From a virus (lineage: Duplodnaviria > Caudoviricetes), in IMG/VR virus record IMGVR_UViG_2767802109_000003, positions 1 to 64,000 of that record: 64,000 nucleotides of DNA, one strand, 5' to 3'. The translations under genes were made by a program, and so were the position numbers. The notes below the pieces were generated by a model. That model was not told the origin of the DNA. It did not search any database and saw only the letters and a list, made by a program, of their open reading frames with translations. Below, piece by piece: positions 13,115 to 51,525 of this stretch (its first letter is position 1; each line of letters starts with the position of its first letter).

Positions 13115-13134
13115 GGCCCCGCGGAAGCGGGGCC
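13115..13134. terminator. Hairpin, putative terminator between convergent genes
   Basis: GGCCCCGC-GGAA-GCGGGGCC. Confidence 0.55.
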
Positions 13135-25780: not shown

Positions 25781-26617
25781 CTAGGCGAAACGGCCGCCGC
25801 CCGAACGAGCCGCACCATGCCGCCCCTTGCCCGGCCGCGCAGTGTGGGCCGCCTGAACCTGGTCCGCGGCAAACAGGGACTCCCCACCCCGCCCCGGCGC
25901 GCGCCCGACGGCCTCCAGACCCCACCGGGACATCTGCTTGCGGGCCGAACCGTTCGCCGACTTGCCCGAGTAGCCGAGATGGCTGGCGACCTGGCTGATC
26001 GTCCACCGGTCGTAGGTGCGGGAGGCGTAGGCGTCGATGTCGTCCACGTGCCACAAGGGCAGCCGGCCACCGAGGGCGTAGTGCCGCGGCTCCGGCAGGT
26101 GGCCGACCTTCCACAGCAGGCTCCAGCCCGTCGGCGACATGACCAGCTGGTGGGTGTCGGCGAGGTAGGGCCGAACCGTGTCCAGGGTGAGGCAGCGGTC
26201 GTCGCGGGCCGCGTCAGCGGAAGGGACGCGTTCGTCGAGGATGGTGAGGCTGTCGCGGGACCCGGCGATGGGGTACACGTCGTGGGCGAGGCCGTGGGCT
26301 TCCCGCTCCAGCCACTCCTCGGCCGGGGTGACGGAGTCGGCGCGCAGCGCGGTAGGGCGGATCACGGTGGTGACGGGCTGGGCGGCGATCTCGTCGGCTT
26401 CGGGGCCGGTGCCGTACCGCCAGGCGAAGTTCGGGGCGTCGCCCTTGGTCTTGCCGGTGGCACACAGGATGCCGATGGGCCGGTGGCCGGTGGAGGCGTG
26501 GATGGCTTCGGCGAGTGCGCGGGCCTTGGGGGTGAGGGTGTCGAGGTCGACGGTGTCGGTGAAGGCGGTGGTGCCGCCTGCGGTGCGGCGGATGTTGAGG
26601 GTGACGAGGGTGGGCAT
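25781..26617 (-). CDS. Hypothetical protein with C-terminal HTH
   Basis: C-terminal WTISQVASHLGYSGKSANGSARKQMSRWG; N-terminal ~200 aa unrecognised. Confidence 0.7.
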   Translation of the reverse strand: MPTLVTLNIRRTAGGTTAFTDTVDLDTLTPKARALAEAIHASTGHRPIGILCATGKTKGDAPNFAWRYGTGPEADEIAAQPVTTVIRPTALRADSVTPAEEWLEREAHGLAHDVYPIAGSRDSLTILDERVPSADAARDDRCLTLDTVRPYLADTHQLVMSPTGWSLLWKVGHLPEPRHYALGGRLPLWHVDDIDAYASRTYDRWTISQVASHLGYSGKSANGSARKQMSRWGLEAVGRAPGRGGESLFAADQVQAAHTARPGKGRHGAARSGGGRFA

Positions 26618-26647
26618 GGCGGCGTCTCCGGCTCTGGTGGCGGGTGG

Positions 26648-27181
26648 TCAGGTGGCAAGCTGGGTGCGGATCTGCTTGGCCAGGTCGATGACCGCTTCCA
26701 TCGGGATCGCCGCGGTCGACTGGTGCTTGACGCGGAGTCGGCCCTGGTCGAGGAAGGCGATGCCGTTGACGATCTCGTCGGGGCCATCCTCGATCTGGTC
26801 GGTGATGGTGATCTGAGAGCCGGTGAGGGCGATCAGGGTGGCGGTGCGGTCGCCTTCGTGGGTGATGGCGTTGAGGCGGTCGGCGAAGAGCGGGGCGAGG
26901 CCGGTGATGGTGGTCCAGGTGGAGCCGTTCTTGCGGGTGCGGGTCTTCACCGTGGCGGTGGCCGTGATGTCGGCGTGCGTGTAGGTACCGGTGAGGTTGA
27001 TGGTCACGGGCTTGGCCTTCCTGGCACGCAGGGCGCCGATGGTGATCCGGTGGGCGAGGGAGGCGGTGTCGATGATCCAGCGGCCGGCCTGCTTGGTGGC
27101 GGCGATGATGCCGCGGCGGCACCAGGTGCGGATGGTGGCGGTGGTGACGTTGGCCTGGAGTGCGGCGGCGGTGGTGTTCAT
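26648..27181 (-). CDS. Hypothetical protein with N-terminal MerR/Xis-like HTH
   Basis: MNTTAAALQANVTTATIRTWCRRG..AGRWII; RBS AAGGGG. Confidence 0.7.
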   Translation of the reverse strand: MNTTAAALQANVTTATIRTWCRRGIIAATKQAGRWIIDTASLAHRITIGALRARKAKPVTINLTGTYTHADITATATVKTRTRKNGSTWTTITGLAPLFADRLNAITHEGDRTATLIALTGSQITITDQIEDGPDEIVNGIAFLDQGRLRVKHQSTAAIPMEAVIDLAKQIRTQLAT

Positions 27182-27205
27182 CGGGTCCCCCTTGGTTTGA
27201 TGACT

Positions 27206-27234
27206 CCATAATGCCTCATGGTGAGGCATTATGG
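27206..27234 (-). promoter_or_regulatory. Perfect 13-bp inverted-repeat operator overlapping a putative promoter
   Basis: CCATAATGCCTCA-TGG-TGAGGCATTATGG; minus strand reads TTGCCA-18 nt-CATTAT. Confidence 0.75.
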
Positions 27235-27350
27235 CAAGGGAGTGTGACCACCCGATCCCCGGTAGCGGGACCCCAAGACGCAGAATCGCCCGCCACCAGC
27301 AGAAAGCTAATGGCGGGCAGCGAAAAGACCGGTCGGTCGAGGCGGCAAGA

Positions 27351-27441
27351 TGGGCCATCCCCGCAGGGGCGGGGAGCACGGGCACGTAACCGGAAACGCT
27401 CGTTCCAGCCTTGGGCCAACCCCGCCAGTGCGGGGAGCAAC
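27351..27441 (-). CRISPR. Orphan type I-E-like mini-array: two diverged 29-nt repeats and one 33-nt spacer
   Basis: Repeats TGGGCCATCCCCGCAGGGGCGGGGAGCAC (27351-27379) and GGGCCAACCCCCGCCAGTGCGGGGAGCAA (27413-27441), each with the CCCCGC-N4-GCGGGG stem and GAGCAN end of actinobacterial I-E repeats; spacer 27380-27412; no cas genes in window. Confidence 0.78.
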
Positions 27442-27507
27442 CGTCAACTTTCCGACGGCACCGCCACCATGCCACGCCCCACCGACAAACCGCAGGCGAA
27501 CGCCCGG

Positions 27508-27580
27508 CTACAGCTCCGTCACCTCGAACGGGGCGGGCAGTGGCGGCAGCGCCACCCGCAACGCCCGGCCCAGCAGGGCG
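27508..27580 (-). pseudogene. Truncated C-terminal copy of the 28488-28805 gene
   Basis: Translates ALLGRALRVALPPLPAPFEVTEL*, versus AMLGRALRVQLPPLPSLYELTEL in the intact copy; begins right at the rep stop codon. Confidence 0.75.
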
Positions 27581-28345
27581 CTACCGAGGGAACCTTGCCA
27601 GCCAGGCAGGAAGCGGCTTGTCGTCACTCCAGTAGTGCATCAGCGCATACTTGAACGACAGCAAATCCACCTCGCGAACCGACTGCAAGGCTTGGGGGTC
27701 CTCCCGGCCGAGCTGCGCCAGCGCACGCTGCCGCTTGTCCCGGTACACCTGCGGGCGCTTCCGCTCGAACTGCAACAGCAGCCGACGCACCTGATCGTCG
27801 TCGAGGTCGTTCGCCGACGCATACAGACGGTCGAGTTCCACCTGGCGTCGATCTTGCGCGCTCGTCGCCTCCCCCGCGCGAGCGGCAGCGAGCGCGGAGG
27901 AATGTTCGTCGCCAGCATCTTCTTCCTCCGTACTTCTTCCGTCACTACTTCCTGAAGAGGTACCGCTCACCGACGTCCCGCCGACGGACGTACCGTCCAC
28001 CGACGTGCCGCCAGCGGTACCCCGGTCCCGGGGGATGTCGAACACCTCCAGCACAGTGACGAACCGCCCCCGCTCGCCCTTCTCTCGGCGCCGCACGATG
28101 TAGCCGGCCGCCTCCAGCTCGGAGAACGCCGACCGGAGGCCGCGCCGCCCCTCGCCCACGACATCACCCCGGTGCCGTCGGGCCCGGTCAGACAACGCGT
28201 CAGCGTTCGTTTCCCAGCCCGACGGACGGCTCAACAGCTCGGCCAGCACGCCGCGGGCGCAATACGTCAACCGGTCATCCCGCAGCAGCGCGTTCGGCAG
28301 GATCGTGAAATTGTCGACTGGCCGTGAACGACGGATCTTCAGCAC
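27581..28345 (-). CDS. Second replication-initiator-like HTH protein (plasmid/phage type)
   Basis: DNFTILPNALLRDDRLTYCARGVLAELLSRPSGW and AFSELEAAGY motifs; internal GGTSV repeats (~27970-28020). Confidence 0.68.
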   Translation of the reverse strand: MLKIRRSRPVDNFTILPNALLRDDRLTYCARGVLAELLSRPSGWETNADALSDRARRHRGDVVGEGRRGLRSAFSELEAAGYIVRRREKGERGRFVTVLEVFDIPRDRGTAGGTSVDGTSVGGTSVSGTSSGSSDGRSTEEEDAGDEHSSALAAARAGEATSAQDRRQVELDRLYASANDLDDDQVRRLLLQFERKRPQVYRDKRQRALAQLGREDPQALQSVREVDLLSFKYALMHYWSDDKPLPAWLARFPR

Positions 28346-28487
28346 ACGCCACGCCCTATGAGACTCGGGCACGCCAAAACAATCATGAATGTCCCTGGTG
28401 TTGCGCGGGCCGCACGCCCGCTGATCTGCGAAACGGCCGGACGGGGTCACCGTCCGGCCGATCGTGTGAACCGCTACGCTGCGCCGA

Positions 28488-28805
28488 TCACGCAGACGCC
28501 GAAAGCTCCGTCAGTTCGTACAGGCTCGGCAGCGGCGGAAGCTGCACACGCAGAGCGCGGCCCAGCATCGCGCGGGCCATCAGCTCCCACTCGGCGACGG
28601 GCCGCCCCGCCGGCTTCACGAACAGCAGGCTGCCGTCGGGACGGCGAAACGTACCGCCAGTGAAGCCCGGGTCCGCCTCGATCTCCGTCACGTCCACGTC
28701 GAACTCGGCCAGAAGGGCATCGAGGGGGGCGTTCATCAGACGCTCGGATGTCGGGTTCGTGACGGGGGTCGCAGTGCCGTCCACTCCAGGGGTTGCTAAA
28801 GTCAT
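28488..28805 (-). CDS. Small hypothetical protein downstream of GntR repressor (ImmA/IrrE-like pattern without HExxH)
   Basis: DALLAEFDVDVTEI..GFTG..LLFV..WELMARAMLGRAL; start may be ATG ~28736. Confidence 0.6.
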   Translation of the reverse strand: MTLATPGVDGTATPVTNPTSERLMNAPLDALLAEFDVDVTEIEADPGFTGGTFRRPDGSLLFVKPAGRPVAEWELMARAMLGRALRVQLPPLPSLYELTELSASA

Positions 28806-28908: not shown

Positions 28909-29646
28909 TTATTCGGTGTCGACCTGCCAGGCCCCCGGCGGGTACACGTCCTCCCAGACCTCTAGCGGTCCGTCTTCATCGTGGAAGACGTTGACCACCA
29001 CCAGAACGGACGCGGCCGACTCCGGGGGAAGATCGATGCCCAGCGCGTTGAGCTCGTCGTTCGAGATGAGGCGGGCAGTCCTGCGCTCCGGCGACCTTGT
29101 GACGTCGCGGCCGGTGCGCTCCTTGTAGAGGTCTTGCCACCAGCGTTCCGACGGTCCGTCGTTCAGCATCTCTGGCACGGTGCCGAGAGCGCGGACGTGG
29201 ATGAACGAGGTGTCGACGGTGGAGGGGGAGCCTTCGCGGTGGTGCACTCGGCGTCGAATGACGACCTCGTCGTGGGGCTCCAGGTCGAGCAGCTGGGCGA
29301 TGACCGGGTCCGCGACCGACCTCATGCCGGCCCAGTGGTTGCTGGAGGTTTCGCCGGGGGCGCGTAGTTCACCAGTGCGCGCCCTTCGTCCCAGCCGGGC
29401 GGCGCCAGTGACGGCCACGTTCGACTGGTGAGCCACGAAGGTGCCTGTCGAGTTCGCCTCCAGGAGACCTTCCGAGGTGAGCGTCTTGAAGGCCTGATCG
29501 ATGGTGCCGGACGCTGCACCGGTCTCTTCTGTGATCTTTCGCCTGGAAGGCAGTCGCGTTCCGGGGGCGAGCGTTCCGTCTTGGATGAGCCGCCGGTAGT
29601 GCGCGGCGATCTCCAGTGCGGTACGCCGTGTGTTCGGCGGCGGCAT
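28909..29646 (-). CDS. GntR/UTRA repressor, KorSA-like
   Basis: N-terminal IAAHYRRLIQDGTLAPGTRLPS..TIDQAFKTLTSEGL wHTH; UTRA-type C-terminus; divergent from transfer operon. Confidence 0.88.
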   Translation of the reverse strand: MPPPNTRRTALEIAAHYRRLIQDGTLAPGTRLPSRRKITEETGAASGTIDQAFKTLTSEGLLEANSTGTFVAHQSNVAVTGAARLGRRARTGELRAPGETSSNHWAGMRSVADPVIAQLLDLEPHDEVVIRRRVHHREGSPSTVDTSFIHVRALGTVPEMLNDGPSERWWQDLYKERTGRDVTRSPERRTARLISNDELNALGIDLPPESAASVLVVVNVFHDEDGPLEVWEDVYPPGAWQVDTE

Positions 29647-29689
29647 GAGTCTCCTGACTTGAGTTTTGGGTGAGGGGGCTTGCTTGCGT

Positions 29690-29813
29690 TCTAGATTAGC
29701 TCTAGATTGGGTTTCCGCAAGCCCCCGCCGCAAGGCGAAAGGGCCTCGCCAGTGGTAGCGCATTGAGCGAGGCCAGGACCCTCGGCACCGGTGGTAGCGC
29801 ACCGATGCCGAGG
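29690..29813 (+). promoter_or_regulatory. Leader of the transfer operon: TCTAGATT direct repeat and two stem-loops with identical GTAGCG loops
   Basis: TCTAGATTAGCTCTAGATT (29690-29708); hairpins 29742-29774 and 29780-29813. Confidence 0.6.
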
Positions 29814-29846
29814 CAGCCAGCAACCTGACCGAACCAGGAGCTAGCC

Positions 29847-33796: not shown

Positions 33797-35203
33797 ATGA
33801 CTGCCAGCCCGCCGAAGGTAAACGGCCACGCCCGGCCGCCGGCCGTGCCGGCCCTGCAAGTACTGGGGGACTGGCAGCCCGTCGCGCCCGAGACCAAGCC
33901 CACCGCCGACAGTGCTAACCCACCCGTCGCTGAGCCGTCCACCACGCCCGGCCCCGACAGCGACCTGGTCGAGCAGGCCAAGGCCGAAGCGATCCGGGCG
34001 CAGGCGTGGGCCGAGTCCGAGGAGCGCCGCCTCGCCGCCGAAGTCGAGAAGGAAGCCGCGCTCAAGCGGGCCGCCGCCGAAGCCGAAGCGATCCGGATCA
34101 AGGCCGAGGAAGACGCCCGGAAGCAGCGCCTCGCCAATGACCGTGCCGAACGCAAGGCCGCTGAGGAGCAGGCGGCATCCCAGGCGCGGATCGCCGAGCA
34201 CAACCGGCGCCGCGACGAAGCCGACCGGGCCCGGGAGCGTGCCGCCCGGGAGGATGCCGAGCAGCAGCAGTCGGAAACCGAGAAGGCCGAGGTTGTCGCC
34301 AAGTCCAGCAAGCGGTGGCGCCGCGTCGCCCTCGGCTTCTACGCCCTGTGCGCCGCAGTCGCCCTGCCCGTGCAGATGGCCGCCTTCTGGGACCCGAACG
34401 CCAAGTACCTCCTCGTCGCCCCGATCTTCATCGAAGTGATCGCCCTCGTCGCTCTCGTCGGCGCCGCCGCAGCGGTGACCGACGGGCGCCCGCAGTGGCA
34501 CTACCGGCTCGTCGCCTGGGCCGGCGCCCTCACCGCCGCCACCATCAACGCCGTACACGGGCTGGGTGCGTTCGATGCCGCCACCGCATTCGGCACCGCC
34601 CTCGCCTCCGTCGCAGGGCCCGGCATGTGGGACCTCCACGAGCACGGCCGGATCCGCAAGCGCGACGGCAAGCCGACCTGGCGCGAGCACCGCGCCGCAG
34701 CGAAGGCAGCTAAGCGGGCCGCCGCCGAGAAGGCCGCGGAGGAAGAGAAGCGGGCCGCCGAGAAAGAGGCCGCCGACGAGGCCGCCCAGGAGGCCGCGAA
34801 GCAGCTCGCGGAGCTGCGCCAGGCCGAGTTCGAAGACGTGTGGAAGCACGCCCGGAAGCTGGCCGCGGCACTCGGCGAAACGACCGTCACCGAGGCCGTG
34901 TGGCGACGTGCGCACAAGGACATCCGCGGCGCCGACCCGGGCGAGGACGCGGAGACGATCCGGGCCCGCAACGCCGCCGAAGCAAGGGTCGAAGCGGCCC
35001 GCCAGAAGCGCTCCGTGAACACCCTCAGCAAGACCACGAACGCACAGCGTGCGATCCAAATGAACGGCTCCCCGCGCCGCTCCTCGTACAAGCCGGTTCC
35101 GCCGCGTCGGACACCCGGCGACACGCCCTCGTACCACCCGCTTGCCCGCCGTGCGAACGGTGAGACGAAGCGCCGCTCGAACGCCGCCAAGAACGCCGAC
35201 TAA
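33797..35203 (+). CDS. Coiled-coil plus four-TM membrane protein (DUF2637/Spd-like transfer accessory)
   Basis: Charged coiled coils flanking four hydrophobic segments; upstream of TraB-like gene. Confidence 0.65.
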   Translation: MTASPPKVNGHARPPAVPALQVLGDWQPVAPETKPTADSANPPVAEPSTTPGPDSDLVEQAKAEAIRAQAWAESEERRLAAEVEKEAALKRAAAEAEAIRIKAEEDARKQRLANDRAERKAAEEQAASQARIAEHNRRRDEADRARERAAREDAEQQQSETEKAEVVAKSSKRWRRVALGFYALCAAVALPVQMAAFWDPNAKYLLVAPIFIEVIALVALVGAAAAVTDGRPQWHYRLVAWAGALTAATINAVHGLGAFDAATAFGTALASVAGPGMWDLHEHGRIRKRDGKPTWREHRAAAKAAKRAAAEKAAEEEKRAAEKEAADEAAQEAAKQLAELRQAEFEDVWKHARKLAAALGETTVTEAVWRRAHKDIRGADPGEDAETIRARNAAEARVEAARQKRSVNTLSKTTNAQRAIQMNGSPRRSSYKPVPPRRTPGDTPSYHPLARRANGETKRRSNAAKNAD

Positions 35204-50673: not shown

Positions 50674-51525
50674 TTGTCCATCAACAACTTCAAGCCCGAG
50701 GTCTGGAGCGCGCAGCTTCTCGTCGGCCTCCGCGGCGCCCTGGTGTACGCGCAGCCGCAGCTCGTGAACCGCAACTACGAGGGCGAGATCACGACCCGCG
50801 GCCAGTCCGTGCACATCACCACGGTCGGCGATCCGACGATCTTCGACTACGACGCGGGCGACACGATCAACTACGAGGACATCGAGACCGCGGGCACGGA
50901 CCTGATCATCGATCAGGCCAAGGCGTTCGCTTTCAAGATCGACGACGTGGACAAAGCCCAAGCCCTCCTCAACCCCATGTCGGACATGGCGCAGAACGCC
51001 GCCTACGGACTCCGCGACAAGGCCGACGCCTACGTCGCCAGCCTCTACACCGGCGTCGCCGCCGCCAACACGGTCGGCACCACCGGTGCACCGATCAGCC
51101 TCAGCGATCCGAAGGACGCCTACGACAAGGTCCTCGTGCCGCTGCGCACCCGGCTCGACCGGGCCAACGTCCCTACCGAGGGGCGCTACTTCGTTGGCTC
51201 CCCCGAGTTCGAGGGCGCACTCCTCCGCGACGACCGGTTCGTCCGCGTCGATGCCTCCGGAAGCGAGCAGGGCCTCCGCAACGGCATGACGGGTCGCGCC
51301 GCCGGCTTCGACATCCTCAAGTCGAACAACACCCCCAACCCGACCGGCAGTGTCCAGGTCATGCAGGCCGGCTACCCGGGGGCGATCACCTACGCCGAGC
51401 AGATCCTGGAGACCGAGGCGCTGCGCCTCCAGTCCACGATCGCCGACGCCATCCGCGGCCTCCACGTATACGGCGCCAAGTTGCTGCGCCCGACCGGCAT
51501 CGCCGTGGCGTTCGTCCAGCCGTGA
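50674..51525 (+). CDS. Major capsid protein (P22 gp5/HK97 fold)
   Basis: TTG start; FKPEVWSAQLL, NRNYEGEI, IDQAKAFAFKIDDVD, GLHVYGAKLLRP. Confidence 0.9.
   Translation: MSINNFKPEVWSAQLLVGLRGALVYAQPQLVNRNYEGEITTRGQSVHITTVGDPTIFDYDAGDTINYEDIETAGTDLIIDQAKAFAFKIDDVDKAQALLNPMSDMAQNAAYGLRDKADAYVASLYTGVAAANTVGTTGAPISLSDPKDAYDKVLVPLRTRLDRANVPTEGRYFVGSPEFEGALLRDDRFVRVDASGSEQGLRNGMTGRAAGFDILKSNNTPNPTGSVQVMQAGYPGAITYAEQILETEALRLQSTIADAIRGLHVYGAKLLRPTGIAVAFVQP

Follow-up and report, generated by a model that had tools for sequence, protein, structure and literature searches.

The intergenic, minus-strand unit at 27351-27440 of the DNA analysed here (a stretch of 64,000 nucleotides from a Streptomyces prophage, hereafter the window) consists of two type I-E CRISPR repeats framing a single spacer, and it probably encodes a crRNA-like anti-CRISPR RNA of the Cracr type, which would reprogram the Cascade of an I-E host to repress cas3. 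RNAs of this class have been described only recently, and were found via their likeness to host regulatory guides. The report on them demonstrates that viral crRNA-like RNAs repress cas and creT promoters via partial PAM-proximal matches, as in the CracrIE array of the Salmonella Se29 prophage, which represses the casA promoter via a discontinuous 20-bp match; it counts Actinomycetota among the sources of candidates and takes likeness to a host CreR/CreA guide as the criterion of discovery (Liu et al., bioRxiv 10.1101/2024.10.29.618823). The host CreR and CreA RNAs themselves use partial matches to repress cas or toxin promoters (10.1101/2023.03.10.532045).

The two 29-nt repeats lie at 27412..27440 (repeat 1, the 5' repeat on the minus strand) and 27351..27379 (repeat 2, the 3' repeat), have 24 of their 29 bases in common, and are 83-86% alike (86% over the 28 nt of 27351-27378 versus 27412-27439), with a period of 61 nt. 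Between them is a spacer at 27380..27411, which the earlier note had given as 33 nt; with 29-nt repeats its length is 32 nt, and the resulting geometry of 29+32 is canonical for type I-E. The CCCCGC-N4-GCGGGG core of the repeats occurs in 3 copies in the window against an expectation of 0.07, a count that no shuffle attained; the third copy, at 13117, is a terminator-type hairpin devoid of I-E flanks and is unrelated to the unit. Each repeat is predicted to form a 6-7 bp stem closed by a 4-nt loop, and the minimum-free-energy fold of the whole unit, in which repeat pairs with repeat, was discarded as an artefact of the palindromic stems. An Rfam scan of 26500-28500 gave noise only and no match to a CRISPR family, as is expected for so short an element. 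With Cas6e cutting 3' of the repeat 1 hairpin, the guide would carry UUGGCCCA as its 8-nt 5' handle; the 3' handle, a 21-nt hairpin supplied by repeat 2, would complete a crRNA-like product of 61 nt.

To place these repeats among those of the genus, the 397-nt intergenic region was searched against 60 relatives. Positions 27352-27439 of the window align repeatedly, in steps of 61 nt, to long arrays in several same-genus genomes, in one of which (G029) two such arrays flank an operon coding for Cas3, Cse1, Cse2, Cas7e, Cas5e, Cas6e and a I-E type Cas2, the Cas3 having its HD, helicase and C-terminal domains. Repeat 1 is identical to the G029 array repeat at 23/29 positions and repeat 2 at 25/29, with the differences falling in the loop, the first base and 2-3 of the 8 handle positions. 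The unit hence shares with I-E repeats of its own taxon a 29-nt length, a G+C stem of 6-7 bp, a 4-nt loop and an 8-nt handle part, along with the 61-nt period of I-E arrays. Read the way the cas genes run, the G029 array downstream of cas2 corresponds to the window's plus strand in reverse complement; the sense strand of the unit is therefore the minus strand. Spacing, core counts, hairpins and the array alignment confirm the earlier note in its recognition of two I-E type 29-nt repeats, its choice of the minus strand as the transcribed one, by analogy with I-E repeats, agrees with the G029 arrays, and the I-E locus with matching repeats that it proposed to seek in hosts is present in same-genus genomes such as G029.

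The unit does not have the attributes of an immune array: it has just two repeats, no protospacer in a mobile element was found, and cas genes are absent from both the window and the carrier genome (8.39 Mb in 167 contigs, 100%-complete), of which the window forms part of contig C8. Plasmid matches to the repeat region point to Streptomyces in 88 of 91 records. The absence of cas genes, noted earlier for the phage, holds for the whole genome: Pfam searches for Cas6e, Cas7e and Cas1 recovered no match, and a tblastn search that used all G029 I-E locus ORFs of 110 aa or more as queries recovered non-cas flanking genes only. The genome does have a decayed five-repeat I-E remnant with a 61-nt period beside an RHH/PIN-like gene pair (C27:44150-44410), together with two solitary I-E repeats (C27:45256-45280 and C4:166476-166500). 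Since an array remnant and solitary repeats are found without cas genes, the carrier host seems to have lost its I-E system. More generally, a Cas6e homologue is encoded by 106 of the 400 genus genomes sampled, about 74% being without one. The lack of Cas6e in the carrier host, and in the host of the one related cassette found next to a homologous gene (G020, see below), speaks against the Cracr reading, and the RNA is unable to act in its present host because Cas6e is absent.

Searches for a full protospacer of the spacer gave nothing beyond chance partial matches, whether in the carrier genome (at up to 8 mismatches), the INPHARED phages, IMG/VR (with seed and distal patterns), the GTDB representatives, the PLSDB plasmids or, with 3 mismatches allowed and each sixth position left free, 400 genomes of the genus. 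Megablast and blastn of the region against INPHARED likewise returned nothing, and a combined handle and seed pattern had no match in IMG/VR and one chance match in metagenomes. These results bear on the possibility that the unit is an interference mini-array, in which a canonical guide uses host Cascade-Cas3 against a rival phage or plasmid and any match to cas3 is coincidental. Such rival-targeting mini-arrays are reportedly known from viruses, and the canonical lengths of spacer and period would suit one. Yet the collections searched, metagenomes included, hold no full or near-full PAM-flanked match in a rival element, and the match to cas3 described next is statistically far beyond chance, which makes this explanation very unlikely.

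The earlier note had advised comparing the spacer and its PAM-proximal part with phages, plasmids and the host, especially cas promoters, and it was in a cas gene that this comparison proved positive. I-E Cascade flips out every sixth position of its guide, leaving positions such as 12 and 18 unpaired. Accordingly, we scored PAM-proximal runs over 41 same-genus I-E loci (1.46 Mb) with every sixth position ignored. In G029 (locus L043, minus strand, from 3533), guide positions 1-11, 13-17 and 19-20 match next to an AAC PAM, such that 18 of the first 20 nt are matched and the mismatches fall at positions 12 and 18 only. On its plus strand this site comprises the in-frame ATG of cas3 and the next ten codons, i.e., the guide sequence corresponds to the template strand of the first 11 codons, and the strand with which the guide would pair is the coding (non-template) strand, from +13 to +32. 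With 1000 shuffled spacers over the same 1.46 Mb the longest run was 15 (2 of 1000), against 17 observed; among 300 real spacers, with self-matches excluded, 3 reached at least 16, two of which look like shared spacers. When the 20-nt pattern is run over all of the G029 genome, the cas3 start is the single site with 0 mismatches, followed by twelve sites with 3, and in two further genomes (G337 and G295) the cas3 start, with 1 mismatch, is the best site genome-wide.

The matched ATG appears to be the true start of cas3. It lies 6-7 nt behind a -10-like box, CCTGTAT-NN-ATC, in a motif conserved in at least 21 Streptomyces I-E loci (L043 3480-3504; aligned in L045-L072), which suggests a conserved promoter, and because the ATG follows the box so closely the cas3 mRNA looks leaderless. 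RefSeq places the start at the same ATG in a homologous Streptomyces plasmid locus, and the HD domain of Cas3 begins at residue 23 from it, 22 residues further on. The site is not uniform across the clade: seed position 5 is occupied by C in several loci, and AAC, AGC, TTC or ACC stands in the place of the PAM. Close relatives have either the seed mismatch at position 5 or another PAM, and it counts against the Cracr reading that a perfect seed with AAC is found in only 1 of about 64 sampled cas3 5' regions.

The AAC next to the cas3 site is a trinucleotide that is in use as a PAM in the genus. On the prophage, the sequence at 51283..51314 (plus strand), in the capsid gene, matches a natural I-E spacer of G246 at 30/32 positions with the PAM AAC; that at 34352..34383 (minus strand) matches another G246 spacer at 27/32 with AAG; and that at 25920-25951 (minus strand), in the gene for a 278-aa protein, matches a natural I-E spacer at 27/32 with AAC. 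These three spacers (with 2, 5 and 5 mismatches, respectively) come from arrays of two other Streptomyces species, and natural-spacer matches with 7 mismatches have arbitrary flanks. As AAC is used both by natural spacers on the prophage and by the target of a host CreA-like guide, it is a working PAM, with AAG also in use. Moreover, the matches of natural spacers with AAC and AAG PAMs indicate that I-E immunity in the genus does target this phage lineage, which is under pressure from the same I-E clade.

The host CreA-like guide just mentioned belongs to a repeat, 20-nt guide, repeat arrangement between cas3 and cse1 of G029, on the opposite strand (L043 6447-6530). Nearby is a 69-codon hydrophobic ORF (L043 6616-6825, minus strand), the ribosome-binding region of which matches the 11 PAM-proximal nt of the guide after AAC. 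To judge by its sequence, the pair is a Streptomyces toxin module guarded by CRISPR and arranged like CreTA, and the same pairing of CreA-like guide and ORF is found between cas3 and cse1 in G246 (L048). CreTA modules were reportedly described by Li et al. in 2021.

Taking the unit to be Cracr-like, we infer the following course of transcription, processing, loading, repression and benefit to the phage. A minus-strand transcript would arise from the unit's own conserved leader, or by read-through from the rep-like gene upstream. In a I-E host, Cas6e would cleave both repeat hairpins, giving a 61-nt RNA composed of the 8-nt handle, the 32-nt guide and the 21-nt hairpin, which would be loaded into host Cascade. 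Only the 20 PAM-proximal nt would pair, beside the AAC PAM, with the cas3 non-template strand from +13 to +32. In E. coli Cascade, a long PAM-distal mismatch results in no R-loop locking. As the 12 PAM-distal nt cannot pair with the cas3 site, neither locking of the R-loop nor recruitment of Cas3 is expected; instead, Cascade would act as a roadblock that lowers cas3 transcription. In addition, the viral RNA would compete with immune crRNAs for Cas proteins. The expected outcome is that interference is lost and Cascade remains intact. Repression would be limited to the nuclease, with Cascade kept, since in G029 the oppositely oriented CreTA-like module separates cas3 from the Cascade genes; with Cascade kept, the toxin module would stay quiet. 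It is conceivable, though we would put it at somewhat under an even chance, that the unit is in this sense a Cascade-sparing RNA anti-CRISPR with a guide not copied from any host regulator, which by repressing cas3 alone leaves a CreTA-type toxin silent and lets the phage escape both immunity and its addiction safeguard with one 61-nt RNA.

The same match could instead serve a self-targeting weapon, whereby in the cognate host the guide would make Cas3 cut its own gene locus, or would prime the uptake of new spacers there, and the ensuing autoimmunity selects for loss of CRISPR-Cas. The 32-nt spacer would permit full R-loops in a fully matching host. Partially matched I-E targets are able to prime adaptation. 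Furthermore, both lysogens (the carrier, G000, and G020) are cas-less and the carrier retains its decayed array remnant. However, the 12 PAM-distal nt of the guide are unmatched at all 21 cas3 5' ends examined, a temperate phage has much to lose if its host is harmed or killed, and two cas-less hosts are an anecdote in a genus where about three quarters of the sampled genomes lack Cas6e anyway. We regard this as the least probable of the explanations weighed here.

Three features of the unit itself sit uneasily with the Cracr reading. Its spacer has the full 32 nt, against 14-24 nt in most described regulatory guides; 2-3 of the 8 bases of its handle are not those of the array handle; and no host CreR copy of the cas3 site beside a repeat-like hairpin was found in those 21 of the 41 fetched loci that have a locatable cas3 start, a sample of one genome per species. 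The mimicry of a host guide by which published Cracrs were recognized is thus not seen here: the search brought up no host CreR bearing this guide, and the likeness to the CreA-like unit of G029 is confined to the handle.

The surroundings of the unit place it on a virus and outside any CRISPR-cas locus. The window encodes a YqaJ recombinase, a sliding-clamp-like protein, a methyltransferase, the large terminase, the capsid protein and a 1937-aa ORF of tape-measure size, and its genes fall into phage families. The unit is part of a minus-strand block which runs from a regulator with confirmed GntR/UTRA domains (28909-29823) and a replication-initiator-like (rep-like) DNA-binding protein (27581-28450), through the unit, to a 177-aa DNA-binding protein directly downstream (26648..27181; Pfam HTH_17, E = 4.6e-5) and the aforementioned 278-aa phage protein (phrog_34233; 25781..26617), which is the next gene of the same operon. 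About 25 nt upstream of repeat 1 is a leader motif, TGTCGG, 10 nt, TG-N-CATGGT (27466..27487), which also immediately precedes the first repeat of the G020 cassette and of the arrays on the IMG/VR contigs L123, L127, L132 and L134; the gap is 10 nt here and 8-9 nt in these other five arrays. Given its conservation and its resemblance to an extended -10 element, the motif is likely to be the promoter of the guide unit. It is absent from the calls of a generic sigma-70 scan, and its -10-like element, CATGGT, is weaker than the CATAGT of the relatives, a further point against the Cracr reading.

Downstream, 30 nt past repeat 2, is a strong hairpin of 13-14 bp with a weak U-rich tail (27288..27318), in a region with a fold z of -3.8 (27268-27350). 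It is absent from terminator scan calls, and may terminate the guide transcript or form its 3' end. The HTH_17 gene is preceded by promoter-like elements of its own, TTGCCA, 18 nt, CATTAT, with which a perfect 13-bp inverted repeat in the position of an operator overlaps (27206..27237), and analogous palindromes precede homologous HTH genes elsewhere.

This context invites explanations that dispense with Cas proteins: an antisense RNA on the 5' end of the leaderless cas3 mRNA, a functionless captured array fragment, or terminator or leader hairpins of the HTH operon. The complementarity of the guide to codons 5-11 of the cas3 mRNA, the lack of Cas proteins in the host, the weakened -10-like box and the position of the unit between two same-strand genes would each accord with one or another of these. 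On the other hand, the mismatches obey the 5+1 pairing rule of Cascade and a PAM is present, neither of which an antisense RNA needs; hairpins and 8-nt handles have been preserved, as has the exact 61-nt period; and the leader and repeat are conserved in independent elements. An obligatory leader of the HTH gene family is ruled out, for of the 13 homologues of the gene found among 400 genomes only one other, in G020, has repeats upstream, the eleven others having none. We consider any such Cas-independent element or relic highly improbable.

The G020 cassette (L021 ~1210-1370, G020:C34) has four repeats with periods of 49, 48 and 43 nt, corresponding to guides of about 20, 19 and 14 nt, followed 3' by a hairpin with a T-run, in the place that the downstream hairpin has on the prophage, and then by a promoter with a palindromic operator. 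Its leader, its first repeat and the first ~190 nt of its HTH gene (the N-terminus of the product being 67% identical) are common to the prophage, repeat 1 being the most conserved part of the array between the two. As these are shared while the surrounding genes are unrelated, leader, repeat and HTH gene constitute a mobile cassette. None of the three short G020 guides has a target in the sampled I-E loci. The first of them, which contains CCAGGGGC, has the look of CreA-type guides.

Similar arrays are found more widely among viruses. A scan of IMG/VR for repeats with the handle variant of the window unit yielded 19 high-GC viral contigs (L116-L134), most of which carry arrays with mostly short guides and some of 30-33 nt; L120 has a lone repeat only, L126 has one full-length spacer followed by a terminator, and the leader motif of the window is upstream of the first repeat in 4 of the 19. 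Several of their guides resemble or match host sequences: one in L121 is a near copy of the G029 CreA-like guide, one in L127 matches an AAC-flanked, creT-like ribosome-binding-site region in G149, and one in L116 matches a site some 25 nt ahead of the start codon (ATG) of a G129 gene in the cas operon, probably cse1, with mismatches at positions 6 and 12. The cas3 guide itself was not found in other elements of IMG/VR or the metagenomes by its handle and seed. The recurrence of repeat-like units in the G020 cassette and in these contigs provides the conservation in homologous loci whose absence the earlier note would have held against a function.

That related cassettes preserve the hairpins and vary the guides might also be expected of a pure decoy, the hairpins of which would sequester Cas6e and Cascade subunits into aberrant complexes, irrespective of the spacer sequence. 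Phage-borne mimicry of CRISPR repeats by solitary repeat decoys, the Racrs, has been shown for type I-E among other types (Camara-Wilpert et al. 2023, PMC10651486). Like the unit, Racrs are mimics carried by phages, often beside anti-CRISPR loci, and the divergence of the two repeats from each other and from the host array repeat would be in keeping with a decoy. Yet a Racr is a guide-less solitary repeat, for which the SRUFinder rule demands that no second repeat lie within ~100 bp, whereas here two repeats 61 nt apart frame a PAM-flanked, targeted guide. Moreover, a decoy has no need of a 32-nt spacer at exact I-E spacing, and it leaves unexplained a genome-unique 20-nt match to cas3 which has a PAM and mismatches at the unpaired positions only. 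A purely decoying role is accordingly unlikely, with the qualification that decoy and guide effects are compatible and not exclusive of each other. Of the two roles that the earlier note had offered, hijacking or decoying of the host I-E system, the former is supported by the PAM-flanked cas3 match, and the latter, as well as targeting of a competitor, is less well supported than cas3 repression. Likewise, its preference for a regulatory or decoy function over an actively acquiring array is upheld as regards regulation, again by the match to the 5' end of cas3 next to a working PAM, and less so as regards the decoy.

Comparison with the known systems sets the Cracr reading in perspective. The published Cracr elements, including the Se29 CracrIE array, resemble the unit in their prophage location outside the CRISPR-cas locus, the degenerate I-E repeats flanking a guide, the discontinuous PAM-proximal match of about 20 bp to the control region of a cas gene, the expected Cascade-mediated repression with crRNA competition, and the neighbouring regulatory or possibly anti-defence genes. 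They differ in that the published targets are casA/Cascade or creT promoters and the published guides have 21-24 nt, whereas the unit is directed at the start of cas3 with a single 32-nt guide, occurs in Streptomyces, is known from sequence and has no matching host CreR guide that we could find. Host CreR and CreA units share with it the succession of repeat, short or partly matching guide and repeat, and the G029 CreA-like unit additionally has the same handle variant, AUGGCCC with C at the fifth position, and the AAC PAM. However, CreR, CreA and CreTA elements reside inside cas loci and serve the host through autorepression or toxin control; the prophage unit is located in a cas-less genome and would act against a host. 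As to virus-borne mini-CRISPR arrays, which Medvedeva et al. in 2019 and Faure et al. in 2019 are said to have described in inter-virus conflict, the unit is similarly a cas-less, one-spacer array on a virus that would rely on host Cas proteins. Those arrays fully match rival viruses and cause interference, whereas the unit has no rival target in the collections searched, and its sole significant match is partial and in a host cas gene.

Relative to the published Cracr cases, what appears to be new is the cas3 target, the full-length guide and the lack of a detectable host template. This suggests that the class is wider than known and extends to guides of normal spacer length, aimed at cas3, for which no host template is known. 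If so, searches that demand similarity to CreR/CreA guides would overlook part of it; a phage would have a way of neutralizing a type I system that leaves CRISPR-guarding toxin modules untriggered; and the unit would offer a compact natural design for silencing cas3 in Streptomyces, where endogenous I-E systems interest tool builders. A single genus links spacers that immunize against this phage lineage, CreTA-like safeguards of the hosts and a family of guide cassettes borne by phages.

Two minor observations concern the loci at either side of this relationship. In G029 (L043 11538-13317), the match to Cas1 is partial and lies inside a long frame overlapping cas6e, and the next ORF has no Pfam match; cas1 may thus be frameshifted there, though the interference genes look intact. 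On the prophage, the minus strand at 27500-27545, right after the stop of the rep-like gene, encodes a short peptide resembling the C-terminus of a 105-aa ORF upstream of rep (28488-28805). Since this orphan gene end lies behind rep, the arrangement suggests that the rep gene was inserted as a cassette.
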